A stretch of DNA of 64,000 bases from a virus, in IMG/VR virus record IMGVR_UViG_3300012012_001194, positions 1 through 64,000 of that record, one strand, 5' to 3'. Numbering within the stretch: the stretch's first letter is position 1; the number at the start of each line of letters is the position of its first letter. Position numbers and translations under genes: made by a program. Below are positions 14,319 through 61,153 of this stretch, in pieces. The notes beneath the pieces were generated by a model. That model worked only from the letters and a program-made list of their open reading frames with translations, was not told the origin of the DNA and searched no databases.

Positions 14319-14328
14319 CGCCTACTCC

Positions 14329-14790
14329 TTAGCCGCCGTTGGCACTTAGTTCAATTAACTTTTCTATATATCCCAGCACCCCGTATGGAGATTGAAGCGG
14401 ACCATCTCCGCTGCCCTGCCCTCTTCTTCTTCCGGCTGAGAAAGCTTCTGATCTGGCTAAAGAGCAGTGCCTTAAACGAAAGGCTCGCTCCATCGCTTGA
14501 AGATAAGCAGACTGCAGCCTGACGACCTTGGCATCGCCATCAGTTCCTGGCGAGGCTTGGTTGTAAACATCTTGGCAGTTGCTGTCTAGCTCCCCTCTGC
14601 TAAAGGTGTCTCTTACAGCAGCATAATTACCAGGATCTTTGCCCTTGTGGTCTGCAAGCTCCCAAACGCGGGCTCCACCATTAAACATGGCGTCAGCCAT
14701 TTCATTTGACTGCGCAGCCATCTTCGTAATGTTGTCTTTAAACCTAGTATCTGGGCTACTGACCTTTGATATTCCGTAATAGTCACTCAT
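14329..14790 (-). CDS. Hypothetical protein
   Basis: 153 aa; ATGA overlap with the sigma gene. Confidence 0.7.
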   Translation of the reverse strand: MSDYYGISKVSSPDTRFKDNITKMAAQSNEMADAMFNGGARVWELADHKGKDPGNYAAVRDTFSRGELDSNCQDVYNQASPGTDGDAKVVRLQSAYLQAMERAFRLRHCSLARSEAFSAGRRRGQGSGDGPLQSPYGVLGYIEKLIELSANGG

Positions 14791-15617: not shown

Positions 15618-15627
15618 AATTATTCCT

Positions 15628-17283: not shown

Positions 17284-18044
17284 TAGTTGCCCTGCACTAT
17301 CTTAATAAGTTCAATCTTGTCCATCTCTATAGCCAAAGCCAAGCTAAGCGCACCCATCTTATCAGCCAAGGCATCTGACCTACGCCACAGCTGCTTAAGG
17401 TCTTCTTTACCGGAGAAAATCTGCAATTCTACATCAGAGCCTATCAAAGCCTCACAATCTGCAAGGACTTGTCCGATGTCCTTAGCAGGTTTAAGGAAGG
17501 CCGTAGCTCGGTAGTGCCCATTACCTAGCGCTAATTTAATATCGTTTAATAAGTTAAAGTAGCTACCAGAGCTGGCTACCGTATACCTATCACCGGTGCG
17601 CTCGTCTACGACATTACAGGTGTCTCCTGACACCTCTAAGTCTAAAATGAATTGCGATCGGCCAAGCCTATCATCAGCAGTAGGTATGTTAAACACAGAA
17701 TAATCGATTGCAAAGATACTATTAACCCCTTCAACTTTAACAACTCCATAACCTGCCATGGTCGATGCAAACTGTATAGGCCAGTAGGTAAGTCTACTGT
17801 CTTTAGCGGTAACCGCCTCATACAAAGCCCCGTCATGCCACATGGTAGTAAGTTGCCTAAGCCTGTAGTTTAAGTAAGCCCTGTCTGGGCTTTCTCCAAA
17901 TATCAATCTATGAACCGTAGACACGTAGCCTGACATAGGCTTCTGGCGAAACATGGGGTCTACAAGCTCCTCGCCAGGGTATTCAAGCCCAGGCCAGTTG
18001 CTTCCGCTGATATTAAGTAGTGCAGTCCTATAATGGTTAATCAT
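17283..18044 (-). CDS. Hypothetical tail-region protein
   Basis: 253 aa; translationally coupled on both sides. Confidence 0.65.
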   Translation of the reverse strand: MINHYRTALLNISGSNWPGLEYPGEELVDPMFRQKPMSGYVSTVHRLIFGESPDRAYLNYRLRQLTTMWHDGALYEAVTAKDSRLTYWPIQFASTMAGYGVVKVEGVNSIFAIDYSVFNIPTADDRLGRSQFILDLEVSGDTCNVVDERTGDRYTVASSGSYFNLLNDIKLALGNGHYRATAFLKPAKDIGQVLADCEALIGSDVELQIFSGKEDLKQLWRRSDALADKMGALSLALAIEMDKIELIKIVQGN

Positions 18045-21500: not shown

Positions 21501-24024
21501 GAGCCCCATCTTTAGCCTTCTGGTCAAGCTCTTTAATCTTTGCAGCACTGTCTGTCTGCTTAGCTACAAGCTTGTCACGGCTGTCCTGATCAGCTTTAGA
21601 TAATGGGGCGCCTTCATCCTTATCAATCATCTTATTGTAATAGTCGGTTGATCCCGCCCTGTCGGTGAAGCCGCTTCTAATTAGGTCTTCTTTAAGGTTA
21701 GTCTGCTCCTCTATTAGCTTTTTCTTCTTTTCTGGGTCTTTTTCTTTGGCGATTGCATCAGCATTAATGGTGATTGCACTTCTAAGGTAATCAGTTTTAA
21801 CCTGTTCACCGTTAGCGCCCTTAAATGCTTCAACTGACTTCTGTAAATCATCAAAGTCCTTAGCAAATATCTCTTTAATCTGATCCTTAGGTTGGAAGTT
21901 CAAAGCTGCAGCCATGAAGTCTTCTACCTTAGTTTCTTTTCCAGCACCTCTAAGGAAGTCAGTCGTCCTCTGTAGGAAGCTGCTCTTGCCCATTCCGCCA
22001 AACCCTTCTTCAAACTGGCTTGTGATATCTGCTTCTTGCTTTAATGCTTGGGCCTCTCTGATCTTCCCTTTGTTCATGCTGTAGGCCATGGTTGGAAGAC
22101 CGCCTTCAAACTTTTGATTCCTAGCGTAGGCGTCTGAGGACTCATAGATAGACCCAGCCATGACAGCAAGTGCCTTCTTATCAGCTGCGGTAGTCTTGAT
22201 ACCTTTTTCCTCAATAATCTTATTGAGGTTTCTCTGGGTTAAACCTTTAAGATCATTAAGGTCATCTTTGCCTAAGTTGTCAGCAAATAGGCCTTCAGAG
22301 GTGCGATCTGTTATTTCTTGCGAGCTTGAATTAAGCAACGTCCTTAACTCTGGGCTAACACCCTTCATAAGTTCTTCGTCATCCATTACACTGCGTACAG
22401 CCGTGCCGTTGTACGCCGATAGCTCGTCAGTTACCAGCCGAGTCTGTCCCTGCCTGCCTATATTAGTATTTATATCGTATTTATTTATAACAGCTTCGTT
22501 AGCATCTCTATTGGCGTTAAGACTTTGAATCACGGATATAGGAACTTTACTACCGGCTAAGAACTGGTTGATTCCGCCTTCTTGCTTGTTTAAATCATAT
22601 ACGTTCTTCTTCTCGCCGTTATATGTGTAGTTTCCGCCAGAGTCCTTATCCTTTATAGCTGCGTACACGGCGGCGAGCTCACTACCCTTCTCGGGTTCGA
22701 CTCCAAAGGTCTCAACGGCTCTTGCTATAGAAGCAACATCTTGAGTCCTATAGTCCCTGGTGGCTTGAACATTAAGCTGCTGGTCGATGTTAAGGAGCTT
22801 GTCTGCGTTTGGTAGCCCAAAGACCTGAGCTCCACCAAATATGTTCTTACCTGCTTGGTTCTCTGCTACGGCTTGGTTAGTGATGCCCGGAACAAATACA
22901 CGGTTAACCCCCGACCTGTCAGCCATGCCAGCTGTGGCGCCCATGAGCTTAAACATCTCTGGCATTTCAATACCGGCAGCCTTAGCCACATTAGAGGTGT
23001 TTCTTACCATACGTGCCAGCTTCTGGGGCTCTATGTTCTGCATATTAGCTTGAGTAAGCGTTTCGATCGCTCCTACGAGCTGAGCCATGGGCGCATTAGG
23101 CTCTCCTGCTTCGCCAAATATCTCAGACATGGCATTAACAGCCTTAGACATGCCCTTCAGCTTACTGGCTATCTTATTGGCGTCTAGTTCCCGCAGCTTA
23201 CGGTCTAAGTCCGGCATTTGGGACACTTCGGAGATGGTGGTCCCCATCTGATCTGCAATTTCCTTCATACCTTTGCCGCGCCCAGATGAGTTAGGCATCA
23301 TGCCTCGGCGCTGAGCTTCATCAAACAATGCACCAGCCCTGCCAGCGGTCATGCCGCCCATAGCAGACGCATCCCCTGAGTAGAGCCTATCGTATACGCC
23401 TTTGGTAATCTCGCCTGCTGATTCTGCGCTGTATCCACGGCGCCCAGTCACTGGGTCGATTGCATACCGACCACCACGGGCCATGTTTTGAGCCATAACG
23501 GTGGCTGAGCCTTTAACCCCCGCCATCTTATCTACGAGATCAGGATTTATTTGTGCCAAGAAGGGCATAGCACTTGCCGCATACGAGGCAACATCGTTAG
23601 CATTTTGGCGCTCTCTTCGACCCATGGGCTGGCCTAGTAGGTTTGCAGACCCCTCAATCATCTCGTAAATAGCCCTTTGATCTCGCTGAGAAGCGATCCC
23701 CATTGCTTTACTTTGATTGCTTAATACAGAACCGGCTTTCATCTGGGAATACATATTCATACCTGACGAAAACTGAGCCGGTACGTACTTACCATTAGGG
23801 CCCGCCCCAGCAAAGCTAGACAGGAGGGGCTGCAGAAGACTGTTTAACGCTACGCTCATGCCTGGATCGGTGACGCCTAGGAGGCCGGCAAGGGGAGGCC
23901 CTTCGCCAACGCTTCCCATACCCCTGCCTTGAGATATGATAGGAGAGGCTAAGCCCTGTGCAAATACGTTAGAGAACACAGACTGTAAATACTGATTAGG
24001 ATTGTAATTATACGGCGGTGCCAA
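18568..24024 (-). CDS. Tape measure protein
   Basis: 1818 aa, helical and Ala/Lys/Glu-rich, no Cys; directly follows the frameshifted chaperone pair; TTG start with GGAGGT RBS. Confidence 0.85.
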   Translation of the reverse strand: MAPPYNYNPNQYLQSVFSNVFAQGLASPIISQGRGMGSVGEGPPLAGLLGVTDPGMSVALNSLLQPLLSSFAGAGPNGKYVPAQFSSGMNMYSQMKAGSVLSNQSKAMGIASQRDQRAIYEMIEGSANLLGQPMGRRERQNANDVASYAASAMPFLAQINPDLVDKMAGVKGSATVMAQNMARGGRYAIDPVTGRRGYSAESAGEITKGVYDRLYSGDASAMGGMTAGRAGALFDEAQRRGMMPNSSGRGKGMKEIADQMGTTISEVSQMPDLDRKLRELDANKIASKLKGMSKAVNAMSEIFGEAGEPNAPMAQLVGAIETLTQANMQNIEPQKLARMVRNTSNVAKAAGIEMPEMFKLMGATAGMADRSGVNRVFVPGITNQAVAENQAGKNIFGGAQVFGLPNADKLLNIDQQLNVQATRDYRTQDVASIARAVETFGVEPEKGSELAAVYAAIKDKDSGGNYTYNGEKKNVYDLNKQEGGINQFLAGSKVPISVIQSLNANRDANEAVINKYDINTNIGRQGQTRLVTDELSAYNGTAVRSVMDDEELMKGVSPELRTLLNSSSQEITDRTSEGLFADNLGKDDLNDLKGLTQRNLNKIIEEKGIKTTAADKKALAVMAGSIYESSDAYARNQKFEGGLPTMAYSMNKGKIREAQALKQEADITSQFEEGFGGMGKSSFLQRTTDFLRGAGKETKVEDFMAAALNFQPKDQIKEIFAKDFDDLQKSVEAFKGANGEQVKTDYLRSAITINADAIAKEKDPEKKKKLIEEQTNLKEDLIRSGFTDRAGSTDYYNKMIDKDEGAPLSKADQDSRDKLVAKQTDSAAKIKELDQKAKDGAPLSKEDAAKRIKLVDIQTDSDTKIKELDQKVKASGLERAKQEQQGFESKYGITVEQAKNLSPLELQVKQKEFRLNQYKEQAERLNIRMNNSGLMVGDVSGDRAANEAIKYLEKGDVSYGVDLAKKYISDFGMDKSAVSKAGVEGNAAKEKAQGSILRIEAYAKALGVDAGELLNGDFDAGGLPPQIDIASLIKETDRRSEGLDTLYANKDNGNAFADITSGFKKQADALRTTKDDPNEPQAQKAARTREINRLDDLSNTTKENIGSKMESAKKAKEELKGEPLKALEASFEVFKKAQTAQEDHENAVNTFIKETGTGHTLEQMAAPDTGELETVRTLRDQKSKITGTSPKDDAARKEIDKKINDIIDESGIDESKFKGLVGKDYDEATAILKKYDGKLTGKETQDLEKLAKLITPQDALTAEDRAKLEVSETGDVSSKGDKEALRLNALQARKSRAENTDKVVELSRGGEDDTALTYLLSKYKSGSDVASQHLDPGSEGDKAKKEEREKILSLAGIKTNDIVRQNNQLEMLHDKYKAAEAGIKYGESFVIRDGKAVKATDDQVASGNFSYINKDGDTVTQGRNEYYGTNAPAAGEYDSFKNGSNIPLTAEEEKERLELSNKQGEERSKLQAKKENYDKTLKEPDRVEYERLLAKRDNIRTPEDQKKLEEYAIKAGMNVKDLTGLEDWKKDSEAAMKGLSDKDKSMAKDLMKQGKAVSAQQIVAATKLGDFSPQAVMALMGAGDPKDKDKKSYFNALLTQEKKGLMSSLKDLGIATTLGGKTKMTASQEAAIGKASELQAGTAQTAIDFFTKDLQLSGMKKGGKLADEVQVHEKAAREVGKDLTLGMEAAGRYATKPGEGVKSKSQQMKALSELLSSTDDKGLSDEQKTLKKGLLDKGFKDVLDKQGNVDEAKLIKLFKKTETTIAEKNALDPNGGKEGKNQVTAVFEKGQKFEITGTLGLESKVLAGMVGPSNTSSA
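21411..21620 (-). repeat. 105-bp (35-aa) tandem duplication within the tape measure gene
   Basis: ccttctggtcaagctctttaatctttg at 21411 and 21516; protein GAPLSK...QTDS..KIKELDQK occurs twice. Confidence 0.85.
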
Positions 24025-48647: not shown

Positions 48648-49019
48648 TTATCTAGGTCGCATATTTAATAGGTTTCGAGTCATGCTACCGCTATTCATTA
48701 GGTCGAGCATAATTCCAAACCTTGTCGCCTGGGCCATCTTAGCATAATTACCATTCGAGGTGTTAGTGGAGACGTCTCCACTATTTACCTGAGATACGGC
48801 AGCGGCCTGATTAGATACAGAAGGCAGTAGCGTAGACGGGGCCATGGCCTGCGGAAGTGTGTTTACTTGGGCTGCGGCTTGCGGAGATGGCTTACCAGCT
48901 TTAGCAGCAGAAAGGGGAGGCGTAGCGGATGAGCCGCTGCTGGCGGCAGGCTTAGGAATCGATAAGTCTTTTGGAGAAGCGGCGCCAGCAGCTGCCCATT
49001 TATTAAGAAAATAGCTCAT
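48648..49019 (-). CDS. Low-complexity hypothetical protein
   Basis: 123 aa, Ala/Ser/Pro-rich; coupled to the RNAP gene (TAATG). Confidence 0.6.
   Translation of the reverse strand: MSYFLNKWAAAGAASPKDLSIPKPAASSGSSATPPLSAAKAGKPSPQAAAQVNTLPQAMAPSTLLPSVSNQAAAVSQVNSGDVSTNTSNGNYAKMAQATRFGIMLDLMNSGSMTRNLLNMRPR
48764..48783. repeat. Dispersed palindrome copy 6 (perfect 20-mer)
   Basis: Read as SGDVST in 48648..49019. Confidence 0.95.
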
Positions 49020-50938
49020 TAAAGTACCCCTTTGTCTTCTTTCATGTCTAAGACACCGTTGTCCATTTGCTTAGTGTTATACCCTTTTACTGGGCCTTTG
49101 CGTCCAAAGTCAACAGCCTTAGCTAGAGAAGGAACATAGGAAGTACTTTGCTCATCACTTATAGCCCCACGATGCACAGCTTGCAGAGTCGACTTTTTAA
49201 GGTTACTACCAAGCATGCGAGTCATCCAGTCGGGGTCATGCTGAAGGTTTTCTAGCCCACGGACAAAGTGAGGCTCAAAAGGAGCGGGCTTATTATGGAC
49301 GGTAACCTTACCGACGCCGAAGTCATTAAAGTCATTAATCATCGAAGGCTTAATCTTAGTACCTATGGTGTAGTGCAGAACTGGCTGCTCTAAATAATTA
49401 CCTACTGATTCACTAGGGGTTACTATTCTATGTCCCTCTCTAGGTTCCCAGTCGTGCTCCACTGAGTCATAGGGGACAACATCATCTGGGGCAAATTGTT
49501 TGTACTCATCCGTAAGCTTAATGTGATTAATAAGCCCTTTCGACATAACCTCAATATTACGACGATTACCGCCCATGCCGGCGTTTCTCATAGCACCTTT
49601 GAAAGCTTGAACAAACTGCCTGCGCCCTTCGCCTATGCCTTTGAACTTAGTCAACTGAGCAGGGTTTGCTATGCCGTCAGAAAGGGTGTCGCCAGCCTCT
49701 ACTGTATCGTTGAGCTTTACAGATACTGCGGCTTCAGGGTTAACATAGTGGTCTACCCCGTTGATAGCTACAAAATACCCGCCGGTTGCTGCTGGCTTAA
49801 TGCCTGTAACCTTTCCATCTGTCTGTGCGTGGGCGGCCCAGTAAGGAGACTGCTTAGGCGCCTGCACCAATTGATTTAAATGTTTAAACCCTGATACGGC
49901 TCCTGCGGCTCCGGCTACGCCACCAGTATGCTTTGAGCTCAGCTGCCCTTGGGAGATTGGCTCCGAAAGCGCTTGCATCGCAGCAATACCTACAGAGTCT
50001 CCAATAGGAGCAAAGCCTCCCCGCTCTCTTATTCCTAAGTCTCTAGAGTAAAGTCCGCCATCGGGAGCGCCCATGGCTATTGGACTACGAACTAGAAGCC
50101 GTTTAAGGTTCTTAGACTTTAAATCTTTAAGTATTCTTGGAGTTAAGACGGTGTTTCTGCCATACCCTCCAGCCGGCATAGCTAGAAGAGCGCCCTCGTT
50201 ATCATCATCCTCGATGTCTACAGGAAGCCCGCGGTTTTCAGACCTCGTAGGATCCTCAGCGTCGTCGCCTACCACGATCATCCTATGGCCGATTTGATTA
50301 AGCTGCTTTGAGAAGAACCCAGCGTCCATGGTGGCGAACTTGGTATCCGCAACCCCTTTACGAGCTCCGAAAGCTCCAGCAAAGTATTCTGCAGGGTTAA
50401 GACCTTTAGAATAGGAGCTGAATACCGGAATAGGTATTGGGTTGTCGTGGTGGTCTGTGTAAAGTAAGTCACCGCCCCTTAAGCTTTTAAGGTTCATCGG
50501 CTTACCACGGGACCCAGACTGAATCTGTCTAGCTAGCTGATTATTCTCCCTGACGGAGTCATCGAATATACCCTTCTCCATGTCCTTCTGAGAGTTGTTC
50601 AGCAAGTCGATCATTTGGTTGTTTTTACCGGTCTCGTCGTTCTGAGGGTCAGCCATAATGCTGGCTATGGCGGTTCTAAGCTTAGCCTTTGCATCCATAG
50701 AGTACTTAGACTCTCTGAGATCTTTAAGGCCGAACGAGAACCCACCGCTGCCATAAGCCACATCTCTACCAATGTCGTAGAGCTTCTTTGACACTTCTTT
50801 GTACTTATCAGGGTGCTGCTCCGCTATGGTCTGCATGAGCGCTGCAGAGGACTTAGAATCTAAAGTTCTAGAGTAGTCCTTAAGTTCATTAGGGAGGGCG
50901 TCGTTAACCATGATCTGACCGATGGTGGTCCTAAGCAT
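49019..50938 (-). CDS. Phage DNA-directed RNA polymerase beta' subunit, C-terminal half
   Basis: TTIGQ start, SGSRG, bridge helix EYF...GARKGVADT...T..AG, trigger loop VGIAAMQALSEPISQGQLSSKHTGG. Confidence 0.93.
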   Translation of the reverse strand: MLRTTIGQIMVNDALPNELKDYSRTLDSKSSAALMQTIAEQHPDKYKEVSKKLYDIGRDVAYGSGGFSFGLKDLRESKYSMDAKAKLRTAIASIMADPQNDETGKNNQMIDLLNNSQKDMEKGIFDDSVRENNQLARQIQSGSRGKPMNLKSLRGGDLLYTDHHDNPIPIPVFSSYSKGLNPAEYFAGAFGARKGVADTKFATMDAGFFSKQLNQIGHRMIVVGDDAEDPTRSENRGLPVDIEDDDNEGALLAMPAGGYGRNTVLTPRILKDLKSKNLKRLLVRSPIAMGAPDGGLYSRDLGIRERGGFAPIGDSVGIAAMQALSEPISQGQLSSKHTGGVAGAAGAVSGFKHLNQLVQAPKQSPYWAAHAQTDGKVTGIKPAATGGYFVAINGVDHYVNPEAAVSVKLNDTVEAGDTLSDGIANPAQLTKFKGIGEGRRQFVQAFKGAMRNAGMGGNRRNIEVMSKGLINHIKLTDEYKQFAPDDVVPYDSVEHDWEPREGHRIVTPSESVGNYLEQPVLHYTIGTKIKPSMINDFNDFGVGKVTVHNKPAPFEPHFVRGLENLQHDPDWMTRMLGSNLKKSTLQAVHRGAISDEQSTSYVPSLAKAVDFGRKGPVKGYNTKQMDNGVLDMKEDKGVL

Positions 50939-50940
50939 GA

Positions 50941-51159
50941 TTAGCCTCCAATAGTGAGCTTCTTAATGATAGGTGGTGTAATTCCATATTGTTTAAGGAC
51001 ACTTGCAAAATCAGCATCACCTGCTGTATAGCAGGTGATTGTGTTATCAAGGTTATCAAAGAACAAAGCGATCGGGTTATTAAAGCTGTCATAAATGACT
51101 AACCTTGTCGCCTTCGTTATAGGGCCCGCATTAAACGAGTCATGATAATCAAGAAGCAT
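50941..51159 (-). CDS. Small hypothetical protein
   Basis: 72 aa; packed between neighbours. Confidence 0.6.
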   Translation of the reverse strand: MLLDYHDSFNAGPITKATRLVIYDSFNNPIALFFDNLDNTITCYTAGDADFASVLKQYGITPPIIKKLTIGG

Positions 51160-51832
51160 TTCTTCTGTTCTTTCTTAATAAGTGAAGGATGCCTGCAGCC
51201 TTCTCACTAACGCTAAAGTTATCAGCAGCTGTCTTGATTGGTGCAGCACCTTGGTCAGGTGAAGGAGCGCCGCCTTGGTCCTGTTTCTGGCCGTCTGCAC
51301 CTTGCTGGCCTTTAGGGTCATCAAGGATATCATGAGGCAAGTTAAGCCCGAGGGATGAGTAAAGATGGGTCATGAGCTTTTGAATACGGTGCATGTACAC
51401 CTCAGTCTGAGCTCCGTCATTCTTCTTTACAGCACCTTTACCGCCGCCTTTTGCTTCAGCCATAGCTCGTTGCATTTCGTCTTTTACAACTGACCTAATT
51501 TGCTCTGTAGGGTCAGGAGGAGGAGGAGGGGCACCGCCCATCATGGAAGGATCCATAGGGGGAGCACCACCGGCCATAGCAGGGTCCATAGGAGGAGCAC
51601 CGCCAGCCATAGCAGGATCCATAGGAGGAGCACCACCGGCCATAGCAGGATCCATAGGAGGAGCACCACCGGCCATGGCGGGATCCATTGGAGGAGCGCC
51701 TTGTGGAGGGGCGCCGCCCATAGAAGGGTCCATTGGAGGAGCTCCTGGAGGAGCGCCTGCACCCTCTGGAGGCATGAAGGCTCGCTTAACATTGAGTTGT
51801 GCCTGCTTCAAAAGATACTTGTTGATAGCCAT
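51149..51832 (-). CDS. Gly/Pro/Met repeat protein with K-x-A motifs
   Basis: 227 aa; (GGAPPMDPAMA)n; LKQA, VKRA, IKTA, EKAA. Confidence 0.75.
   Translation of the reverse strand: MAINKYLLKQAQLNVKRAFMPPEGAGAPPGAPPMDPSMGGAPPQGAPPMDPAMAGGAPPMDPAMAGGAPPMDPAMAGGAPPMDPAMAGGAPPMDPSMMGGAPPPPPDPTEQIRSVVKDEMQRAMAEAKGGGKGAVKKNDGAQTEVYMHRIQKLMTHLYSSLGLNLPHDILDDPKGQQGADGQKQDQGGAPSPDQGAAPIKTAADNFSVSEKAAGILHLLRKNRRNAS
51528..51757 (-). repeat. 33-bp tandem repeat encoding GGAPPMDPAMA
   Basis: About 5-6 units of ggaggagcaccaccggccatagcaggatccata with synonymous variation. Confidence 0.92.
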
Positions 51833-51881
51833 GTTAATTACCCTTCTTATATGTTTAAAACGTTAATTGCCGTTATCGTCA

Positions 51882-53378
51882 TCAATCCTTGGAATAATCT
51901 GGATACTCGTCAACAATCTGCATGTTTGGCTTTGATACAGTACTTGACTCCATTAAGCCGCCTAGTAAATCATTAGCCATGCTCGCTGGCAATCGTTTTC
52001 CTTCGCCCGCAGAGGTGCTAGGGGACAAGTACGTACTCCTGTCAACGCCTGTATTACCCATCCCCTTTCTAATCGCCATCTCATTAACCCCAGCGCCACC
52101 TAAGCCGCCGATAGCGCCACCAGCAAGAGCACCACGGCCAAGTCGACCAAGAATACCTACGCCTTTCTTTCGTTTACCAAACATAGCGTTACCTACGCCG
52201 CCTATTGCAGCGCCTGCGCCGCCACCTAGGATAGCCGCCTGAGCTGTAGGGTCAAGACCTTTATAAGCATCTAAAGCCTGAGCTCCCATGCCCTTAAGGC
52301 TTTCTAAAAAAGCTCGCTTGTGCATGGTTCCGTTTTGATGACCAAGGCGAGCGGCAAAGGCTGCCGACTTGTTCACCTTTTTACCCTTTTTTTTGTTATT
52401 ATCACTTATGAACTTTCTCATCTCCCCGTGGGCTCCCTTGAACTCATTAGGAACATCATCAGTCAAGTCGTCATAGTCTTTTAAGTCGTCTGATGCGCCC
52501 TTTTCAAGTTGCGATCTTAAGCGCTGGTTACGAACGGCTGCGTCGTATCCTTCAAATCCGCCGCCTAGTAAAGATATAAGAGCCCCCGCTCCGGATCCAG
52601 CTCCTAAACCGCCTGCTAAGGATGCAGCAGCCATAGGTTCTGCGACCCCGGCAGCGCCTAGCATACCTACGCCCTGCCCCATTCGTCCAAATAACTCGCC
52701 CACAGCGCCTGTAGTCCTGCCGACGTTACCCTCTTGGTAACGAGGCGAGCGGCCAGCTAATTGCTCTAAAGCGTCAACAGATCCGGCTCGATGAAATCCC
52801 CCCGCAGGCAGCAGGGCTCCCCACCTACTTAAATGCGGGTCTGCCGCAGCTAGATCCATAGTTTGGCCTTCAGCTTTAGCTTTATTATATTCGTCCCTAA
52901 TTGTAGCGATCTGGCTAGCTCTGGCTGCATTATTTCCTAGGGCTCCGAGTGTTGCACCAATGCCAGTCCCAAGCATGGCACCTCTAGGGCCATTAGCGAA
53001 TCCACCTATGGTGGCGCCTCCAGCGGCGCCTAAAAGCGAAGTCAATACCCTTGCAGTATTTGGATTGGTTATGTTAAAAGCCGGGCTGTTACCCATGGCT
53101 TTAGATAATGTCGTGGCTTTACCTGCCCTAGCATCTGAGTACGGTAATCCCAGAACGTCACCAGCGGTGGCCCAGCGGCTGCCACTTAAAAGTTCATCAT
53201 CAGGGCCGCCATACCCCTTGGGCGCTGCTTTAGGAGGGCCTCCAGCAGGCTTAGGCTTATTAGGTTCATAGGAGTATTTAGGCTTTTTCTTATCAGGAGC
53301 ATCAGCCTCTTCCGCTTGCTTGTATAATTGCTCTAATGCTAACTTAAGTTCGGCGGCTTGGGCTGTAACACTATTCAT
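51882..53378 (-). CDS. Glycine-zipper protein, putative internal/ejection protein
   Basis: 498 aa; several GxxxG hairpins separated by KQA, KGA, KSA and KRA; no Cys. Confidence 0.62.
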   Translation of the reverse strand: MNSVTAQAAELKLALEQLYKQAEEADAPDKKKPKYSYEPNKPKPAGGPPKAAPKGYGGPDDELLSGSRWATAGDVLGLPYSDARAGKATTLSKAMGNSPAFNITNPNTARVLTSLLGAAGGATIGGFANGPRGAMLGTGIGATLGALGNNAARASQIATIRDEYNKAKAEGQTMDLAAADPHLSRWGALLPAGGFHRAGSVDALEQLAGRSPRYQEGNVGRTTGAVGELFGRMGQGVGMLGAAGVAEPMAAASLAGGLGAGSGAGALISLLGGGFEGYDAAVRNQRLRSQLEKGASDDLKDYDDLTDDVPNEFKGAHGEMRKFISDNNKKKGKKVNKSAAFAARLGHQNGTMHKRAFLESLKGMGAQALDAYKGLDPTAQAAILGGGAGAAIGGVGNAMFGKRKKGVGILGRLGRGALAGGAIGGLGGAGVNEMAIRKGMGNTGVDRSTYLSPSTSAGEGKRLPASMANDLLGGLMESSTVSKPNMQIVDEYPDYSKD

Positions 53379-53463
53379 ATCAACACTCCATGTTAAAAAT
53401 GAGCAACTTAAACTCTATTGGAACAGTTTAAACTACATAATACAACGGCGCTACTGCAAACGA

Positions 53464-54102
53464 TTAGTCAAGAAGTAGTGGAGAAGCCTTCCTAAGCAGC
53501 TCGGGACGAAGCAACCCGTAGTCCCTTAGAAGCTTTGAAGTTCCTAAGAGGTTTTCATTGTGCCTGCCTGCACTGTAGTATCCGGCAGCTCCGCCAGCAG
53601 CAGCTGGCGCCAAGGTCGCCATGATTGAAGTAGATAGGGGCTGGCCCGTCAGCTTGCTAGCGGCTAAGCCACCAAGACCGCCGATCCCTGCATACCCTAG
53701 CGCTCTAAGCGTTGGGTTAGCCTTATGACTCTTAAAGTCATACTTCTCACTAGGATCGTTCTTTAATTTGTTGATGATGTTCTCAAAGCCAGGCCGGCCT
53801 AAGCCATAACCACTAAGATCGTCATCAGTAGGTTGAACCATGCTCTTGGCTTGGTCCAGCATAGATATAGCCATAGGCATACGGTCAGGACCGGGCTGCA
53901 TGAAGTCCTTAAGGTTCATATTGCGAGCGGACTTCTCAGACGTTAGCTTGCTCCAGTTCTTCTTATCTGGGTAGGCTTCGCTTCCTGGCTTGGCGGGAGT
54001 TCCGCCTCTTTTCTTTTTTGCTTGAATGTTAGCCCACAACCCAGGGTTGCTCTCAGATGCTGATGATTTAAAGAACAAGCTATGTAATCCCTGTAAGCTC
54101 AT
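53464..54102 (-). CDS. Glycine-zipper protein with short basic N-terminal module
   Basis: Likely ATG at 54102 with AAGGAG RBS; GLWANIQAKKKRG module; C-terminal GxxxG pair. Confidence 0.62.
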   Translation of the reverse strand: MSLQGLHSLFFKSSASESNPGLWANIQAKKKRGGTPAKPGSEAYPDKKNWSKLTSEKSARNMNLKDFMQPGPDRMPMAISMLDQAKSMVQPTDDDLSGYGLGRPGFENIINKLKNDPSEKYDFKSHKANPTLRALGYAGIGGLGGLAASKLTGQPLSTSIMATLAPAAAGGAAGYYSAGRHNENLLGTSKLLRDYGLLRPELLRKASPLLLD

Positions 54103-54232
54103 GATCGGCTCCTTAGATAATAACCCAGCTGAAAAAGCCTCGTCGCTCTGACACACTTCCGCTTCGAGCAACGATTAGTCCCAGGAAAGTGCTAAAACAG
54201 GCCCTAGCCTTTCCAGCCAAGTACACATAATA

Positions 54233-55726
54233 TTACTCTTTACTTCCAATTTGTTTAAGCAAATTAAGGAATTGCTCATTTAATTCCTGCTTTCTATTAG
54301 CGGCAGAAATCAAATAGTCATCCGTAGCTGGTACTGGATCTGCTCCAACACCCACATATCTCAACATAGATCTTAGCCTACCGGGGGCTGTCCTAGCTAT
54401 GTATCTTTCTATTTGAACCTTCCTATCTTCTATAGGGAGGTGCTCATGGCTATCAAAGCGCAAAGCCCTTCCTTCACTCTGACTACTCCTAGCAGTGTTC
54501 CAATGCGGGTCTAATAGCTGAACTAGCTTAGTTCCCTTAAAGGAAAGACCCTCAGTTCCAGACGGGCCTAAGAGCGCAACCTTAAGCTTGTCGGTATTGT
54601 AGTCGTCTACTAAGCGCTTACGCTCTTTATCAGATAGGGCGCCCGTGAAAGAGGCAGCTGGAATGCCAGCTCGGTCTAGCGCCGCTTGATAAGGGGAAAG
54701 CCCAGCATCAATGAAGTTGGAGAAGATCAGGGCTTTGCCCTTGGGGTCTTTATCCAAGAGCCCTTTAAGATTACTAAAGGCAGTGGTCAGCTTGGGCGAG
54801 TCATCAAATGCCTTTTGGACATCTTTGTTACCCTTCATAAATGGAAGAGTAGAAAGACCTACCTGTCTCAGCCCCGTCATGAAGCTGGTCATTCGGCTGA
54901 CCTCTTCCTGCGTCAGCGGGTAATTCATCTTGAGCTTCCATCGAAGCGCAGCAGGAAGCTGCCCCATCATGTAGCTGTTAAGGTCGGTCTGGTTTTGGCT
55001 CATCTCTACGACGACGTCTTTGCGGTTAATCTCAGCTTTGGGAGCCAGAGGTGCAAAGTAATCCACCTTCCCTTGAAGCTTGTTTTTAAGCTGATCTTGG
55101 TTGATGATCGATGGCTCGCCGGGAGCCCCGTTGAAGATGCGCTTGTACCACGGCTGCTTGGGAGCCTCATCCATGTACATGTTACCGAACTCTTCAGGGC
55201 TCATGTCCTCGCCAGTGAGGATGTTATAAGGCACTGTGAAGTCGCTTGGGTCGTTAACTACTGGTGTGCCCGTGAGAAGCACCACCTGCCTAGCCTTTCT
55301 AGCAGCTTCTACTAGGTTCTTGGCTTGAGCCGAGTTTGGATTACGGAAGCGATGAGCCTCATCTACTAAGAGGGAGCCTGGGTTCTCAATCGTACGGCCA
55401 AGCGCTACTCCGGTGTGGCTCATGATGCTACTTGGCGTAGCAGTTGGTTGATCAATAAACTTTTCCTGCTCCTTACGTAAGTTGTTACGTAGAGAAGCTG
55501 GAACTACAGCGGTGTAAGGTATTTTTGACTCGTCTGCTGCAGCTAAGCCGCTTAGTGTTTTTCCAGACCCAAGGCTGTGATAAAGCAACATACGAGCTTT
55601 GCCAGCTGTGTCTAACTGTTTCTGTACCTTATCTACTACTCCCTGCTGGTGCGGCTGCAGCGAGATATTAGGATTAAGGTCAGCCTGTTTTGTGGAGACG
55701 TCTCCACTAATGTAGTCTTGGGTCAC
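54233..55726 (-). CDS. SNF2-family (SF2) helicase/translocase
   Basis: LQPHQ, GSGKT, DEAH, LTGTP, IFSNF, GTEGLS, DPHWN, QSEGRALR. Confidence 0.95.
   Translation of the reverse strand: MTQDYISGDVSTKQADLNPNISLQPHQQGVVDKVQKQLDTAGKARMLLYHSLGSGKTLSGLAAADESKIPYTAVVPASLRNNLRKEQEKFIDQPTATPSSIMSHTGVALGRTIENPGSLLVDEAHRFRNPNSAQAKNLVEAARKARQVVLLTGTPVVNDPSDFTVPYNILTGEDMSPEEFGNMYMDEAPKQPWYKRIFNGAPGEPSIINQDQLKNKLQGKVDYFAPLAPKAEINRKDVVVEMSQNQTDLNSYMMGQLPAALRWKLKMNYPLTQEEVSRMTSFMTGLRQVGLSTLPFMKGNKDVQKAFDDSPKLTTAFSNLKGLLDKDPKGKALIFSNFIDAGLSPYQAALDRAGIPAASFTGALSDKERKRLVDDYNTDKLKVALLGPSGTEGLSFKGTKLVQLLDPHWNTARSSQSEGRALRFDSHEHLPIEDRKVQIERYIARTAPGRLRSMLRYVGVGADPVPATDDYLISAANRKQELNEQFLNLLKQIGSKE
55692..55707. repeat. 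Dispersed palindrome copy 7 (perfect 16-mer)
   Basis: In the N-terminal leader of the SNF2 gene (SGDVSTKQA). Confidence 0.95.
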
Positions 55727-55728
55727 GG

Positions 55729-58700
55729 CTACTCCACTATGACAACTTTGTCGTTGGCATCAATCTCGCCGGAACGGTACGCACGCATGGCATCAGCCTT
55801 AGTCTTGAAGTACCTCTCTGGCCTCTTAGATGCTTCAGAAGTGGCGGTGTAGAGCCCGCCTTGGTATTCATTCATTGGCAACTGATGAACCTTGAAGTTC
55901 TTTACAGCGAACAGGTTTCTGCTGGGTAGCATCTTCTCCATAGCGTCTTTAACCGCTTCGTCAGTAGTAGGCACATGGTAGTTCATAGCATCGCCATCGA
56001 AGTCGGCGCCAAACCCTTTTACAATAATAGGAGGAACTTGAAGAGTACTTCCCTTAACAAGGGTAGGCCTAAACGCCATAACCCCATATCTATGTAACAC
56101 TGGAGCACGAGTAATGATAACAGGTCTTGCTTCCATCTCAGAAGTCATGGCATCCATAGCCATCTTATCTTTATTCTCTATCATTTCTGCGGCTTTAAAC
56201 CTATCAACTCCACGCCTGACTAATCTTCTCATAATAAATGGCTTATACACTGCCCAAGCCCTGTCTTCAGGGATACCGACTTGATCCATGTCCAGTTCTG
56301 GATTAGGAGTAATAGCAGCCCTACCTACCATGTCAACATTAGATGCTAATAGCTTTCTTTGAAGGACACTGAACTTAGGGTTATCACCAAAGACTTGCTT
56401 TAGTATTCCCTTTACGTTCTTCTGCTCTAACTTTGGATTGGTAGCATCGCCAAGCCCAGTTACGGCTTTGAGGGAGTCATAAACGCTTGTTCTATGCTCA
56501 GAAAGATCAGAGAAGCTCTTGGACGACTCCCTCATCTCGTTGTTAGAGTCGATCAACTCTTTATAAAGATAGTTAGCGTCTCCAACCATAGGCAGCCCGC
56601 TTGACTGCATCACGCTAACTGGCCTAAATAAAGGAGGAAGCACAGGAGCTTTAGACATCATCCAGTCAGATGGATGCATATTCAGTTCTTTAGTGCTCTT
56701 AAGATACCCAAGTTTACGAACTGCTTCATCTCTGTAAGACTTCTTACCAGAAGCTATCTGAGCTCTGGCTTTCATGATCTCTTGGTCGACATTGATCTTC
56801 TTTAGTGCTATCCCAATAGCGTTAGGTCCCTTAACGCCGTTAAGAGCTTCTTTACCAGCTAATACGTCTCTAAATTTGTTCTCTGTTAATCCCAGTACTT
56901 TGCGTATGGGCTCTTCCATAACAGGGTTAGGCATCGGCTCGTGCAGCTTTATGTGGCTCCACATCGTACCGCCATGGCCGCCCGTAAGCTTAGGGTCAAA
57001 TAACCCATCACCGACTGGCTTCATGCCGCCTTCCCAATCTACGGTGTCGGATCGCTTAATCTCACGATCGCCTGAGAGGGAGTCTATATCTCTATCAGTC
57101 AATGCCATGAGCTGTGTCTTGGAGCCGCTGCGCACGGGGTTAATTCCAGCTGCTTGGAGCTGTGCCATAAACTTGCGATAGGTCAAAGGCACTCTAGGGA
57201 TTGGCATAGCCTTGCCCCCCATGAAGGCCGCCCAGTAATCATCGTTCTTCTGGCCTCGAATAGCTCCTGCGTCTCTTAGAACCTCATGGGCCCCGTGAGA
57301 GAGTAGAGCGTTAACGTCCATGAGGGCCATTCTTTTAGATCCGGTCTCTCCGCCTTTAGCCGGGGTCTCTTCAGCGGTGTACCCGCTAGAAATTCCTCGA
57401 CCTTGGCCTTTAGACTCAGAGGTGTGATGCAACTTCATAAAGAAGCGATTGCCTGTGAAGATGTTCTTAATCTTCTTACCTGACTCAGGATCTTCGAGGT
57501 CTTCCATATCACTAAGGTTGTTTTTTCTAAGCTCATCGATAGCGAACTCAGTAAGGTCTTCGATGTTGTCGAAGTCTTTAACTGCGTAGCGTTTACCTGT
57601 CTTCTCAGATATCTTTCCAAGAGCAGCTTCTACCATCTGGCTTGGATTAGTTCGAGTAATAACCCCAAGCGGGTTTAGTAGTACTTCAAAGGGCCGTCCG
57701 TCTGCGCCTTTTGGCATCTTGTCATCAGGAACAACAGTGGAGATAACTCCTTTATCACCATAACGCCCGGAGAGCTTATCTCCTTCTTTCATGGGGTTAA
57801 GGCTCTTTACCGTTACTGCAAATCCTTTTTTAGTTTGAGCCACGTCGGTAACCACACCTTCGTTCTCGTGATCCCACGTGGTGCTGGCGTTATTAAACCC
57901 AGTCCTAGACCTTCCAACTTGCTGGTTATGGGCTCTTGAGAGTACGTTAGCTTGTAAGATAAGTGGGTCACCTTTTCTTACAACTGTACCCGGCTTAATC
58001 ACACCGTTGTCGTCAAGGTTGTCTACGAGGGCCCTAGAATAATCAGAAGGAAACAGTGTAAGAAACGCCCGCTTTCCAGGCTTGGTGTCTTTGTCAAATT
58101 CAGCCTCATGCTGATACATGTGCTCAGAGGTTAGACGTTTAGCTGCGCCTTCTGAAATAACAATAGCGTCTTCAAAGTTGTAACCCTTGTAAGGTATGTA
58201 GGCGGTTCTAAGATTAGTGCCTAGCGCAGATGTGCCTTTGTCATTAGTGTAGTTAGATCTAGCTAACAAGTCACCTTGGTTGACAACATCACCAACTTTT
58301 ACGGTAGCCGTGTTATGTAGAAAAGTCTTACGGTTGAATGGAAGATTATTATAGATCTCTTTCTTGTGAAGCTGGCCGTCTTCTCCCCGTACATGAATCT
58401 CATCACCATCTACTTTGATTACTTGGCCCGCTACATCAGAGTGTATAGCGCCCATATGTTTACCGTAATCTTCCTCATAAGACTTGTCGTCTTCATCGGG
58501 CATACCTGATTGCACATAAGGGGCTTCAGGGTTTTGTAGGGGTAGCGCCTGCGTAAGCATGCGGGCGCCCATCATTACTCGCTGCCCTTTGGTAGCGCTC
58601 TTAAGAGGAATCATATTGGCTAGCTGATTAAAGGCGTGCTCCATGCGAGGAAGCTCATGGCTAACCTCTGCTCTGTTCACGTACTTGATCTTACCGTTAA

Positions 58701-60204
58701 CTAAAGCAGCTATCTTTTGATTATTAGGATCTCGAAGCTGATTAGGGAACGCCACAACAGAGTCGGCCATCTCTTGAGGAGTTCGCCACACTTGCTCGTT
58801 AGTGTTCACGTCTCTAAATCCGCCATACACCTTTCCATCAATACCTTTTCTGGAGTTGATAGCAATACGACTGTCTACGCCTACTTTGAGAGACTCTGGA
58901 GTTAGCAAGGGGTCTACAAAGCCAAAGTGAGACGGCTGTACGTTACGAGCCTCTTCAGGTACAGATTGCAGCGAAGGGATACCGCCTTCACCGAGGCGGC
59001 TAATCCTAGTTACTTGGTTAAGCAGGTCGGCAGGGTTAACTTCTTCAAGGGGTTGGCCTAACCCGCTAGTCATAATGGCGCCATTAATCTGAGAGTTTAA
59101 AAACCCAGCGCTGAAAGGGCTTAGGTTCTTCCTGAAGCTAGCCTTCCATAGCAGAGGGCGCATTACTCGGTGTGCAGCGTTGACCCTTTCTGCAAATAAG
59201 TCTTCAGGCCCAACCATAGACTGATACGCCATAGCGTCACGGTCGTCTGGGTCTACCTCTTTACGGTGGACAGCTAATATCTTCTTAGTAGCAGCTAAAA
59301 TAGAATCTGCTGATACGTTCTTAAACGGCTGACCTAAAGTGCGAGACGTAACCTCGGGATCCATCTCCATCTTGGCGATAGCTTCTAATATAGATTGCTT
59401 TTTACTCTCTGCGGTATGAATCTCGCCTGCCTTAGTCTTGCCTATCTTGGCAAACAGCTTTTCCATATGGTTTGGATCGTCGGTAGCAGAGTTAGCACTG
59501 TAGATCTCATTACCCCAGGCTTCTCTAAGCTGCTTGTCAGTAGCGCCAAGGGCTTTTAGTAAAGGAGTAACAGGTACAGAGGATTGGCCGAAGCCTATAG
59601 AAAATACACCCTTCTCAGGATCTAGCGAGTAGCGATGGGACGAGCCTTTTCCTGGCATAACGTTGACATGGCTTTCGACTTCACCATTCTTAGCGATACG
59701 AGTGAACACGCCTGGCTTTAGCCGCATTTGATTAGCTAACGTGTATTCAGTGCCGGTGACGATGAAAGTGCCACGGTCGGTCATATAGGGAACTTTAGCC
59801 AGCGTAGTTCTACGGGTGTCTAGCGTATCGCCAGTAACATTATCTGTTAATGTTAGCGTACCTTTAAGTGCCCGATTTAAGGTATCGCCCTTAAGAATTG
59901 CATTCTTCTGTGACTTGATAGACTTCTGCTCATCGGGGTCGTCCCAGCCAATATCCGAAACACTTAAGGTGTGCCTCTGGTTTACTAATGGTTGGATGTT
60001 AGATGCGGCAGCTTGAATACCAGAAAAGATAGCAGTCCTAGTAGCTTTGATATCATCAAACTTGCGCATTGGCGGCGGTACGGGGGGTTGCATAACGGGC
60101 GGCGGCAGGGTAGGAGCTGCCGTAGAAGCAACCAAGCCGACTGGCTTAGGCTTAGTCGGCTCGGAGCTCAGAACACTGTTATCGTCATCAAGTATTCCAG
60201 CCAT
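55729..60204 (-). CDS. Phage DNA-directed RNA polymerase: beta fused to the N-terminal half of beta'
   Basis: beta motifs PYMTDRGTFIV, GYNFEDAIVISE, GDKLSGRYGDKGVIS, LNPLGV, MKLHH; beta' motifs GLFD, PVLPP..RP, RAPVLH and catalytic GADFDGD (55990-56010). Confidence 0.96.
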   Translation of the reverse strand: MAGILDDDNSVLSSEPTKPKPVGLVASTAAPTLPPPVMQPPVPPPMRKFDDIKATRTAIFSGIQAAASNIQPLVNQRHTLSVSDIGWDDPDEQKSIKSQKNAILKGDTLNRALKGTLTLTDNVTGDTLDTRRTTLAKVPYMTDRGTFIVTGTEYTLANQMRLKPGVFTRIAKNGEVESHVNVMPGKGSSHRYSLDPEKGVFSIGFGQSSVPVTPLLKALGATDKQLREAWGNEIYSANSATDDPNHMEKLFAKIGKTKAGEIHTAESKKQSILEAIAKMEMDPEVTSRTLGQPFKNVSADSILAATKKILAVHRKEVDPDDRDAMAYQSMVGPEDLFAERVNAAHRVMRPLLWKASFRKNLSPFSAGFLNSQINGAIMTSGLGQPLEEVNPADLLNQVTRISRLGEGGIPSLQSVPEEARNVQPSHFGFVDPLLTPESLKVGVDSRIAINSRKGIDGKVYGGFRDVNTNEQVWRTPQEMADSVVAFPNQLRDPNNQKIAALVNGKIKYVNRAEVSHELPRMEHAFNQLANMIPLKSATKGQRVMMGARMLTQALPLQNPEAPYVQSGMPDEDDKSYEEDYGKHMGAIHSDVAGQVIKVDGDEIHVRGEDGQLHKKEIYNNLPFNRKTFLHNTATVKVGDVVNQGDLLARSNYTNDKGTSALGTNLRTAYIPYKGYNFEDAIVISEGAAKRLTSEHMYQHEAEFDKDTKPGKRAFLTLFPSDYSRALVDNLDDNGVIKPGTVVRKGDPLILQANVLSRAHNQQVGRSRTGFNNASTTWDHENEGVVTDVAQTKKGFAVTVKSLNPMKEGDKLSGRYGDKGVISTVVPDDKMPKGADGRPFEVLLNPLGVITRTNPSQMVEAALGKISEKTGKRYAVKDFDNIEDLTEFAIDELRKNNLSDMEDLEDPESGKKIKNIFTGNRFFMKLHHTSESKGQGRGISSGYTAEETPAKGGETGSKRMALMDVNALLSHGAHEVLRDAGAIRGQKNDDYWAAFMGGKAMPIPRVPLTYRKFMAQLQAAGINPVRSGSKTQLMALTDRDIDSLSGDREIKRSDTVDWEGGMKPVGDGLFDPKLTGGHGGTMWSHIKLHEPMPNPVMEEPIRKVLGLTENKFRDVLAGKEALNGVKGPNAIGIALKKINVDQEIMKARAQIASGKKSYRDEAVRKLGYLKSTKELNMHPSDWMMSKAPVLPPLFRPVSVMQSSGLPMVGDANYLYKELIDSNNEMRESSKSFSDLSEHRTSVYDSLKAVTGLGDATNPKLEQKNVKGILKQVFGDNPKFSVLQRKLLASNVDMVGRAAITPNPELDMDQVGIPEDRAWAVYKPFIMRRLVRRGVDRFKAAEMIENKDKMAMDAMTSEMEARPVIITRAPVLHRYGVMAFRPTLVKGSTLQVPPIIVKGFGADFDGDAMNYHVPTTDEAVKDAMEKMLPSRNLFAVKNFKVHQLPMNEYQGGLYTATSEASKRPERYFKTKADAMRAYRSGEIDANDKVVIVE

Positions 60205-60205: not shown

Positions 60206-61153
60206 TTAGGCCTCGTATTCTAGAGTTTTACCTATGTCACCGGAAGGTCTAAGAGTTTTCTTGTTTTTAGCGACATCTACGGGAACAGGAATTGAATAGA
60301 TGGGCTGCCCCTCTATTGCTCTGCGGTTAAGGAACTCGTTGAGGTAACGTTGGGATTCTAGCTTCTCAGCGTCGTTCTTCTTGGCATCTTGATACCCTGT
60401 GTATATACCTGCAGTACCGAGGCCCAGACCTAGCGCTCCGAGTACACCGGCGTATCCTTTTAAGGCGTCCTTAGGATTTGGAGTATTATCTTTAATCTTC
60501 CTACCTAACGCTCCAATACCCGCAACCACGTTTCCACCAAAATCCAATAAGTTGTCCTTAGCTTGCTTCTCGCCTTCAGAATGAAACTCAGCTAACTTCT
60601 CTAAGTCCTCAGCCAAACTAGCGGACTTAACCGCTTTAATAGGCGAGCTCAATCTATTAGAGTGAGCCTCTACTAGAGCCTTACCAAATTCAGCTTTAGC
60701 GTCGGTAAGCTCTTGATCTTTCTCTGCTTTAACTTTCTTAGTTAGCAAATGGTTTATAAGAGAGTAGCTTCCAACCGCTGGAACAGCGGCGGCAGTAAGC
60801 GCCGCTGAAAGATAGTAAGGGTTAGCCAGATCACCAGGCTGAAACTTTGACTCCTTTTCCATGGAGATATTCTTGCCGGGTTTATAAGTACCTAGATTCT
60901 TTGCTTTACCTTTAAGCTTGCGCTTACGTCTACTCTCAAAGAACTCAGAAGTGCCTGGAATGGCACTCTGACCAGGAACAGGGACTTCCACCATGGATCC
61001 GCTAGGAGCACCAAGGGTTGACTCCCTGTCTGTGAGAAGCGAGCCGCTATTTAGATGCTTAAGCAGAGCTAAGCCAGAGCCCCCTAGTAAGCTATAAAGA
61101 CCAGTCCTCTTTAAATCTTCCATCTGCCTAGAGTCGAAATAATCGTTTGGCAT
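60206..61153 (-). CDS. Membrane-type/glycine-zipper protein with K-x-A motifs
   Basis: 315 aa; hydrophobic Gly/Ala segments; VKSA, EKLA, EKQA; no Cys. Confidence 0.6.
   Translation of the reverse strand: MPNDYFDSRQMEDLKRTGLYSLLGGSGLALLKHLNSGSLLTDRESTLGAPSGSMVEVPVPGQSAIPGTSEFFESRRKRKLKGKAKNLGTYKPGKNISMEKESKFQPGDLANPYYLSAALTAAAVPAVGSYSLINHLLTKKVKAEKDQELTDAKAEFGKALVEAHSNRLSSPIKAVKSASLAEDLEKLAEFHSEGEKQAKDNLLDFGGNVVAGIGALGRKIKDNTPNPKDALKGYAGVLGALGLGLGTAGIYTGYQDAKKNDAEKLESQRYLNEFLNRRAIEGQPIYSIPVPVDVAKNKKTLRPSGDIGKTLEYEA

Follow-up and report, generated by a model that had tools for sequence, protein, structure and literature searches.

Two genes in the 64,000-nucleotide stretch of viral DNA analyzed here, positions 1 to 64,000 of the IMG/VR virus record IMGVR_UViG_3300012012_001194 (hereafter, the window), encode, judging from sequence comparisons, the whole catalytic core of a phage-borne RNA polymerase (RNAP) of the bacterial type, the phage being an uncultured one from fresh water. 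The first gene (55729–60204; minus strand, like the second gene, the genes between the two, the sigma factor gene, and all protein features located below) is a single open reading frame (ORF) of 1491 amino acids that encompasses both double-psi beta-barrels; the second gene (49019–50938) encodes 639 amino acids. Neither chain contains cysteine. The first chain consists of the beta subunit tethered by a linker of about 10 residues to approximately residues 25–554 of beta′, comprising both barrels, the clamp coiled-coil, and the flap, and the second chain is the rest of beta′, with the bridge helix, the trigger loop, the jaw, and the C-terminal clamp. Hundreds of phage clusters share this layout, which is undescribed in the searchable literature: full-text searches, with most subscription journals outside their coverage, returned no description of it. 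The reading that we favor, and consider reasonably probable, is a virion-carried, sigma-dependent RNAP without alpha and omega subunits that would have lost its zinc (Zn) sites via selection against cysteine. The record from which the window takes the first 64 kb is linear and 101.5 kb long, and its completeness is estimated by CheckV at about 49%.

Anatomy and reality of the fused chain

The domain composition of both chains is apparent from generic searches. The long chain matches the Pfam profiles Rpb2_6 (residues 596–939), Rpb2_3, and Rpb1_2 (residues 1289–1423), and a PDB search with this chain retrieved bacterial beta over residues ~120–1044 (E = 1e-71) and beta′ over residues 1098–1489; the short chain matches Rpb1_5 and, in the PDB, residues 663–1182 of Mycobacterium tuberculosis beta′. 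Both chains were further aligned with E. coli rpoB and rpoC. The beta moiety (residues 1–1023; 57136–60204) is collinear with E. coli beta 1–1342 up to the C-terminal GINI, with the E. coli lineage insertions SI1 and SI2 absent and with a proline-rich, lineage-specific extension making up the first ~50 residues. The active-site lysines of beta (GDKLSGRYGDKG) are retained, a flap-tip-like helix is present, and the invariant columns of the beta alignment include K1065, K1073, E813, and D814 (E. coli numbering). The segment at 58993–59067, which aligns with the E. coli beta rifampicin cluster (residues 507–534), is strongly diverged (SGLGQPLEEVNPADLLNQVTRISRL); judging from this alignment, rifampicin probably does not inhibit the window enzyme.

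The last beta residues (GINP) are separated from the first aligned beta′ residues by the linker VRSGSKTQLMA (residues 1024–1034; 57103–57135); the junction reads LQAAGINPVRSGSKTQLMAL (residues 1016–1035; nucleotides 57100–57159). The beta′ N-terminal moiety that follows (residues 1035–1491; 55732–57102) corresponds to about residues 25–554 of E. coli beta′, as shown by the alignment and by the PDB matches to beta′ and gamma subunits, and keeps the clamp coiled-coil, the lid, the rudder, and the catalytic barrel; R425, D460, D462, and D464 are among the invariant columns of the beta′ alignment (E. coli numbering). The chain ends at E1491, the equivalent of E. coli beta′ E554, and the second chain starts with M1 at the equivalent of L569, leaving only 14 E. 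coli residues, a variable loop, without a counterpart at the split. In the second chain, the bridge helix occupies residues 183–213 (nucleotides 50300–50392), and the trigger loop, with its histidine retained, residues 319–340 (nucleotides 49919–49984). The AlphaFold2 (AF2) model of this chain has a mean predicted local distance difference test score (pLDDT) of 76.6 and contains a 36-residue helix at 182–217, and the top Foldseek match of the model is Thermus thermophilus beta′ (E = 3e-25). An earlier reading of the window, made from its letters and ORF translations without database searches (the sequence-only reading), had proposed that beta runs into beta′ in one chain that unites both double-psi barrels, and that the bridge helix and the trigger loop are encoded by a second gene about 4.8 kb away; the alignments together with the Pfam and PDB matches bear out both claims, the measured gap being 4.79 kb, with 5 ORFs within.

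The same reading had noted that the catalytic motif is GADFDGD rather than NADFDGD, which is indeed the sequence at residues 1399–1405 (55990–56010), with all three aspartates retained. Among 120 homologues, the first position of the motif is G in 66, N in 35, and A in 9. The E. coli N458S substitution has a mild effect, a few-fold change in sugar selectivity, with R425 being the main sugar selector (PMC7862312); because of this, and because R425 is conserved here, the window enzyme is expected, from its sequence, to be active despite the replacement of asparagine by glycine.

The threat to the fusion named in the sequence-only reading, a sequencing error, was looked for and not found. Contigs from four lake or freshwater metagenome runs, coming from three studies, cover positions 55400–57400 without an indel, and the contig from one of these runs (X1) spans 55942–57291, including the junction, without any difference; a strain variant differs by substitutions only, and many of these are separated by a multiple of three bases. 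One metatranscriptome run contained a small share (0.08) of the sampled words, which is no evidence of expression. In a HMMER search over 1.84 billion representatives, with residues 700–1491 of the fused chain as the query, the best 150 representatives at 50% identity all run through the junction, that is, represent the fused, C-terminally truncated chain, and among these, the full-length proteins have matches that end within a few residues of the C-terminus. All of the best 120 clusters at 90% identity carry the beta and beta′ domains in one protein of about 1440–1560 amino acids, with 100% coverage of the fused chain, or of more than 1560 amino acids where inteins are present, and their contigs reach 235 kb; homologues of about 620–660 amino acids make up a separate family for the second chain. 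An assembly or sequencing artefact, or a decaying pseudogene, for which only the unusual GADFDGD and the metagenomic origin of the record speak, is extremely improbable in the face of these indel-free runs, of isolate genomes with the same layout, of hundreds of clusters that share both ends of both chains, and of the intact catalytic residues.

A phage clade with split and single-chain enzymes

The layout of the window enzyme is found in cultured phages, namely, Salmonella phage Arash (gp206, 1525 amino acids, and gp216, 606 amino acids; OQ632216.1) and Vibrio phages D69, D181, and D148, with the same junction, the same split point, and the same deletion of the beta′ Zn ribbon. These phages resemble the window type also in having one RNAP set per genome, an SNF2 helicase linked to it, and, within the structural module, a sigma factor gene. 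Their enzymes differ in showing only about 31% identity to the window enzyme, in keeping the cysteines of the second Zn site (Zn-II), and in the catalytic motif AADYDGD, and their helicase gene follows that of the beta′ C-terminal chain (beta′C), whereas the window helicase gene lies between those of the two chains. In the accessible parts of the Arash paper, the proteins are labeled plainly “beta” and “beta-prime”, and the fusion, the split, and the missing Zn sites go unmentioned (PMC10585845). A complete 204.8-kb relative with terminal repeats contains exactly one fused gene and one beta′C gene.

Genome assemblies of bacteria and archaea, when scanned, yielded phage-like contigs binned in metagenome-assembled genomes (MAGs), two of which encode unsplit enzymes. 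The 162-kb contig L021, binned into a cyanobacterial MAG, encodes beta, the beta′ N-terminal part (beta′N), and beta′C in one ORF of 2066 amino acids (8875–15072), and the 204-kb contig L022, binned into a Bacteroidales MAG, encodes a beta::beta′ ORF of 2869 amino acids (8899–17505). The L021 protein reads straight through the split point, keeps NADFDGD, has 5 cysteines, and is encoded next to genes for a phage-type helicase, a baseplate-hub-like protein, and a dCTP deaminase; both contigs are probably wrongly binned phage genomes. A split intein joining the two chains of the window enzyme was considered and rejected, given that there are no extra residues at the break in comparison with the unsplit L021. 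At the other extreme, a complete 196.5-kb record (L017) encodes the enzyme in at least five scattered pieces, at about 13.5, 32–36, 80.5, and 140.6–142.4 kb, one of which, 643 amino acids long, bridges the beta/beta′ junction.

In the tree of concatenated beta and beta′ sequences (33 rows, 2173 columns, including 25 bacteria), the phage forms, split and unsplit, comprise one group (SH-aLRT support 100) that is separated by a long branch from all 25 bacteria. The tree was constructed without an archaeal or eukaryotic outgroup and therefore says nothing about how deep in the tree of life this branch lies. Within this very large phage clade, to which unsplit, single-chain forms also belong, the window enzyme is a derived member. 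Because L021 and L022 are unsplit in phage-like contexts and the insert between the two RNAP genes varies in length from 0.6 to 4.8 kb across relatives, we infer that the beta′ split would be secondary, resulting from insertion of genes into an ancestral single-chain beta::beta′ gene. Against this order of events, the single-chain and split forms emerge in the tree as a polytomy (support 60), so that the tree itself gives no order.

Inteins and homing endonucleases have invaded the clade’s RNAP genes on a large scale, with chains reaching 3350 amino acids; examples include homologues P0021–P0271, loci L012, L014, and L016, and Vibrio phages D181 and D148. The insertion hot spots are in the catalytic motifs, near P0001 residues 440, 810, 850, and 1405.

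Cysteine loss, the sigma factor, and the case for packaging

Both Zn sites of beta′ are missing from the window enzyme. At the first (GLFDPKLTGGHGGTMWSHIKL; 56944–57006), the segment with E. coli C70, C72, C85, and C88 is absent, a deletion common to the window, Arash, D69, and L021, that is, to all forms examined. At the former Zn-II (VVGDDAED … VRSPIAMGAPDGGLYSRDLG; 50033–50275), the ligands C814, C888, C895, and C898 are all replaced; pLDDT across this region of the AF2 model is 84–92. In the window subclade, Zn-II is lost in 107 of the 107 intein-free beta′C homologues, with tyrosine and aspartate conserved at the last two ligand positions. Zn-II is retained in Arash, D69, and L021, and in the beta′C of Arash and D69, the four ligands are the only cysteines.

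The loss of Zn ligands is part of a broader pattern. The two RNAP chains, the helicase, and the sigma factor described below (1491, 639, 497, and 276 amino acids) have no cysteine at all, compared with the genome mean of 0.8% (joint P about 8e-11), and the same holds for 112 of 129 fused homologues, 105 of 107 beta′C homologues, and 43 of 44 sigma homologues. Among the 86 ORFs of at least 100 amino acids in the genome, 24 are cysteine-free, together comprising 10,562 amino acids, and the remainder average 1.22% cysteine; among the cysteine-free proteins are the two RNAP chains, the SNF2 helicase, the sigma factor, most of the ORFs flanking the RNAP genes, and an ORF of 1818 amino acids. The sequence-only reading had described the enzyme as streamlined and both Zn sites as lost. 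The losses are real, the ribbon being deleted and the Zn-II ligands replaced in chains with no cysteine; what that description missed is the likelier cause, namely, complete removal of cysteine, shared with the sigma factor, the SNF2 helicase, and neighboring proteins.

Suppression of cysteine across relatives, a hallmark of ejected virion proteins such as N4 gp50, is accordingly present here. Not one of the 3500 residues of the N4 virion RNAP is a cysteine, compared with 1.1–1.4% in N4 replication proteins, and cysteine suppression is conserved in the ejection proteins of Schitoviridae, where it has been linked to passage through the oxidizing periplasm (Lokareddy et al., PMC11445570). By analogy, the Zn ribbon and Zn-II of the window enzyme would have been lost because cysteine is selected against in proteins that exit the capsid and traverse the periplasm.

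A sigma-70-family factor of 276 amino acids is encoded in the baseplate module of the window (14787–15617), as the counterpart of Arash gp10. It matches phrog_351 (E = 2.6e-8) and Pfam Sigma70_r3 (24 bits), and all top Foldseek matches of its predicted fold are sigma factors (probability 1.0). The scan of the record with Pfam Sigma70_r2 and Sigma70_r4 gave nothing useful, the sole match (10.9 bits, inside the 1818-amino acid ORF) being due to chance, and this factor was identified only via PHROGs and fold comparison. It is the likely initiation factor of the window polymerase. The predicted complex of sigma with beta′N weakly supports this assignment, with a score of 0.60 compared with 0.00 for the best control, at least 62% of contacts agreeing between runs, and pLDDT of at least 70 for the partner; of 80 solved complexes, 58 reached the mark for such scores, as did 2 of 110 mismatched pairs, and at scores not exceeding 0.60, it was reached by only 7 of the 80 solved complexes and by both mismatches. 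Sigma and beta′ being a textbook pair, this score may mirror likeness to solved holoenzymes. Initiation would be directed by the phage sigma via the retained beta′ coiled-coil and beta flap.

The claim that no alpha or omega subunit is recognizable, made originally for the window, was extended to the whole 101.5-kb record and to five near-complete relatives (two at 100% and one at 92% rated completeness, plus two genome records from isolates), in none of which was there a match to the Pfam profiles of alpha (PF01000, PF01193) or omega (PF01192); in control cellular genomes, 14 of 14 were matched. Nor does any ORF next to the RNAP genes, such as that of 315 amino acids at 60206–61153, look like a hidden alpha subunit; these ORFs are low-complexity, glycine-zipper or membrane-like, and without family matches. 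This absence is consistent with alpha independence, and the covalent tether between beta and beta′ may replace the alpha dimer in assembly; recruitment of host alpha is possible.

The latter alternative, under which the phage chains would be catalytic subunits assembled on a host alpha dimer, perhaps with omega, in an enzyme that is not alpha-independent, is in our estimation unlikely. The phage enzyme is clearly of the bacterial type, and a missing phage alpha gene is equally expected if host alpha is used; however, judging from tethering experiments reported for E. coli, the covalent tether would lessen much of the need for the alpha platform. All cellular RNAPs need that platform, but the phiKZ/AR9 non-virion RNAPs are active without alpha (PMC7598289). 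Furthermore, packaging of an enzyme built in this manner would demand co-packaging of host alpha, and no host subunit is mentioned for Arash in the accessible parts of that paper (PMC10585845).

Packaging itself is suggested by proteomic data on the cultured relative. In mass spectrometry of Arash virions, the fused chain gp206 was the most abundant protein, with 3516 spectra and 100% coverage, and gp216, the helicase gp217, and the sigma factor gp10, the latter two being the counterparts of the window helicase and sigma, were found as well (PMC10585845). The virion sigma gp10 has no cysteine, and the second sigma of Arash, gp196, has three and is absent from the virion entries of the table, as far as that table is accessible (PMC10585845). 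The RNAP genes sit in the structural module. Under the virion-carried reading, the holoenzyme and the helicase would be packed into the capsid at a late stage of infection and ejected together with the DNA, whereupon the ejected holoenzyme would transcribe the early genes without the host polymerase. That the capsid contains, and the phage injects, a complete sigma-70-type holoenzyme, made up of the two-chain, Zn- and cysteine-free core without alpha and omega, the phage’s own sigma, and the SNF2 helicase, is a proposition to which we give a little less than an even chance.

Several observations weigh against the virion-carried reading. Some plain capsid proteins, such as the coat protein of N4, are also cysteine-depleted, so that depletion is a sign of a virion or extracytoplasmic protein and not of ejection in particular. 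If the enzymes of Arash, D69, and L021 are ejected too, the Zn-II cysteines kept by them imply that cysteine loss is not obligatory. Alpha and omega are absent at the sensitivity of Pfam profiles, the phage enzyme could recruit host alpha, and the record that contains the window is itself only about 49% complete. Finally, the Arash virion list includes ribonucleotide reductases, a kinase, and ligases, and the authors allow for enzyme carry-over (PMC10585845).

This last point leads to the alternative that the same two-chain core is unpackaged and is made after infection for the middle and late genes, like the phiKZ/AR9 non-virion RNAPs, with the host polymerase reading the early genes. We regard this as improbable. 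It is compatible with the one RNAP set per complete genome, intracellular expression being needed in any case, and with the one or two sigma genes carried by relatives, the second of which could redirect either polymerase, and the clearly cytoplasmic enzymes in the Arash preparation make carry-over possible. However, in that preparation, the spectra of gp206 exceed those of the major capsid protein (PMC10585845), the RNAP genes lie within the structural module, and the clade-wide absence of cysteine, which the N4 virion RNAP also shows, lacks an obvious explanation if the enzyme is purely cytoplasmic.

The 4.79 kb between the two RNAP genes begin, directly 3′ of the fused gene, with an SNF2/DEAD-type helicase of 497 amino acids without cysteine (54233–55726), which shares 34% identity with Arash gp217. 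The four further intervening ORFs (235, 498, 227, and 72 amino acids; 50941–54171) are of low complexity and almost cysteine-free, bear glycine-zipper or membrane-like segments, and are in no case alpha-like. Two of them have a membrane-active look and are cysteine-free: the ORF at 51149–51832, with tandem PPMDPAMAGGA repeats, and the 498-amino acid glycine-zipper protein at 51882–53378. Further large cysteine-free ORFs without family matches are the 1818-amino acid one (18568–24024, minus strand) and, beyond the window, a run of 5–6 ORFs (record positions 81189–90583) and a 976-amino acid ORF (93265–96195); these may be more capsid cargo or ejection proteins. A 14-bp palindrome, TGGAGACGTCTCCA, occurs in the window in 8 perfect copies, with 0 expected by chance, at 5478, 9676, 25064, 32832, 40917, 48767, 55693, and 63222. 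The copy at 55693–55706 starts 23 nucleotides past the stop codon of the fused gene, and the one at 48767–48780 starts about 240 nucleotides past that of beta′C.

Relation to known polymerases and implications

Among the features that define the bacterial-type core, the window enzyme possesses the beta barrel lysines, the beta′ DxDGD motif, the bridge helix, and the trigger loop, and is missing the two beta′ Zn sites; no gene for alpha or omega was detected in the record or in the five near-complete relatives. In the natural fusions of Helicobacter and Wolbachia, as well as in engineered E. coli tethers, the beta C-terminus is joined in frame to the beta′ N-terminus, as it is here. Those enzymes have a full-length beta′, both Zn sites, and alpha2 plus omega, whereas the window chain stops at the equivalent of E. 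coli beta′ 554, with the rest in a gene 4.8 kb away, and thus is not a full fusion of that type. The RpoC1 (gamma) and RpoC2 subunits of cyanobacteria and plastids resemble the window enzyme in that beta′ is broken after the catalytic barrel and the two chains must co-assemble. The gamma subunits (624–625 amino acids) align only up to their residue 552–554 or so at the end of the fused chain, and the cyanobacterial break is therefore about 65 residues farther downstream; the original placement of the split close to, and just upstream of, the cyanobacterial one was thus correct. Cyanobacteria further differ in having adjacent rpoC1 and rpoC2, a separate beta, alpha, omega, and both Zn sites, in contrast to the two halves in the window, with 5 ORFs between them.

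The RNAPs of the phiKZ/AR9 type share with the window enzyme the phage origin of their genes, the lack of alpha and omega, and the split of beta′ after the barrel, as well as an SNF2-type helicase linked to the RNAP genes and a virion-packaged form, which in the case of the window enzyme is proposed; in these phages, however, beta is not fused but split, the RNAP set occurs as two paralogues, and a sigma-70 homologue is not used (PMC7598289; PMC7824862). Their sequences are too divergent for trees, whereas bacterial beta and beta′ are easily recognized as matches of the window enzyme. Membership in the phiKZ/AR9 type can be ruled out, given the intact and fused beta, the single set in complete relatives, and the presence of sigma. 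The virion RNAP of N4, gp50 (Schitoviridae), is cysteine-free like the window enzyme and, being ejected, is a functional analogue for the proposed life cycle, but its fold, T7-like and single-subunit, is unrelated. In reviews on the RNAPs of jumbo phages published up to 2026, only the phiKZ/AR9 type, the crAss-like enzymes, YonO, and mReC are covered. Like the window enzyme, those of the mReC phages come from uncultured tailed phages, have bacterial-like beta and beta′, and form a deep branch of their own, but they are encoded by separate genes for beta (~1120–1156 amino acids) and beta′ (~1392–1417 amino acids), which lie tens of kb from each other, and NADxDGD was a criterion in their selection (Weinheimer & Aylward 2020, PMC7481178). 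Identity with the mReC lineage was rejected on architecture, the subunits being separate and full-length there and fused and split here.

The single-chain, two-chain, and five-piece forms, together with the inteins, provide within one clade a natural series for the study of fusion and splitting of the large RNAP subunits. If alpha, omega, and both Zn sites are dispensable, the enzyme separates the parts of the core that are needed for catalysis and sigma-dependent initiation from those needed only for assembly, and a two-gene, metal-site-free, sigma-directed polymerase would be attractive to structural biologists and to designers of orthogonal transcription systems. Lakes commonly contain these phages, and cultured members exist (Arash, Vibrio phage D69), making these questions directly testable. 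If a complete holoenzyme is indeed injected, virions would for the first time be known to deliver a multisubunit RNAP of the bacterial type, one with the smallest natural subunit set of any sigma-dependent polymerase. Polymerase injection would then extend from the T7-like enzyme of N4 and the very divergent enzymes of crAss-like phages and phiKZ to one that is plainly of the bacterial type.

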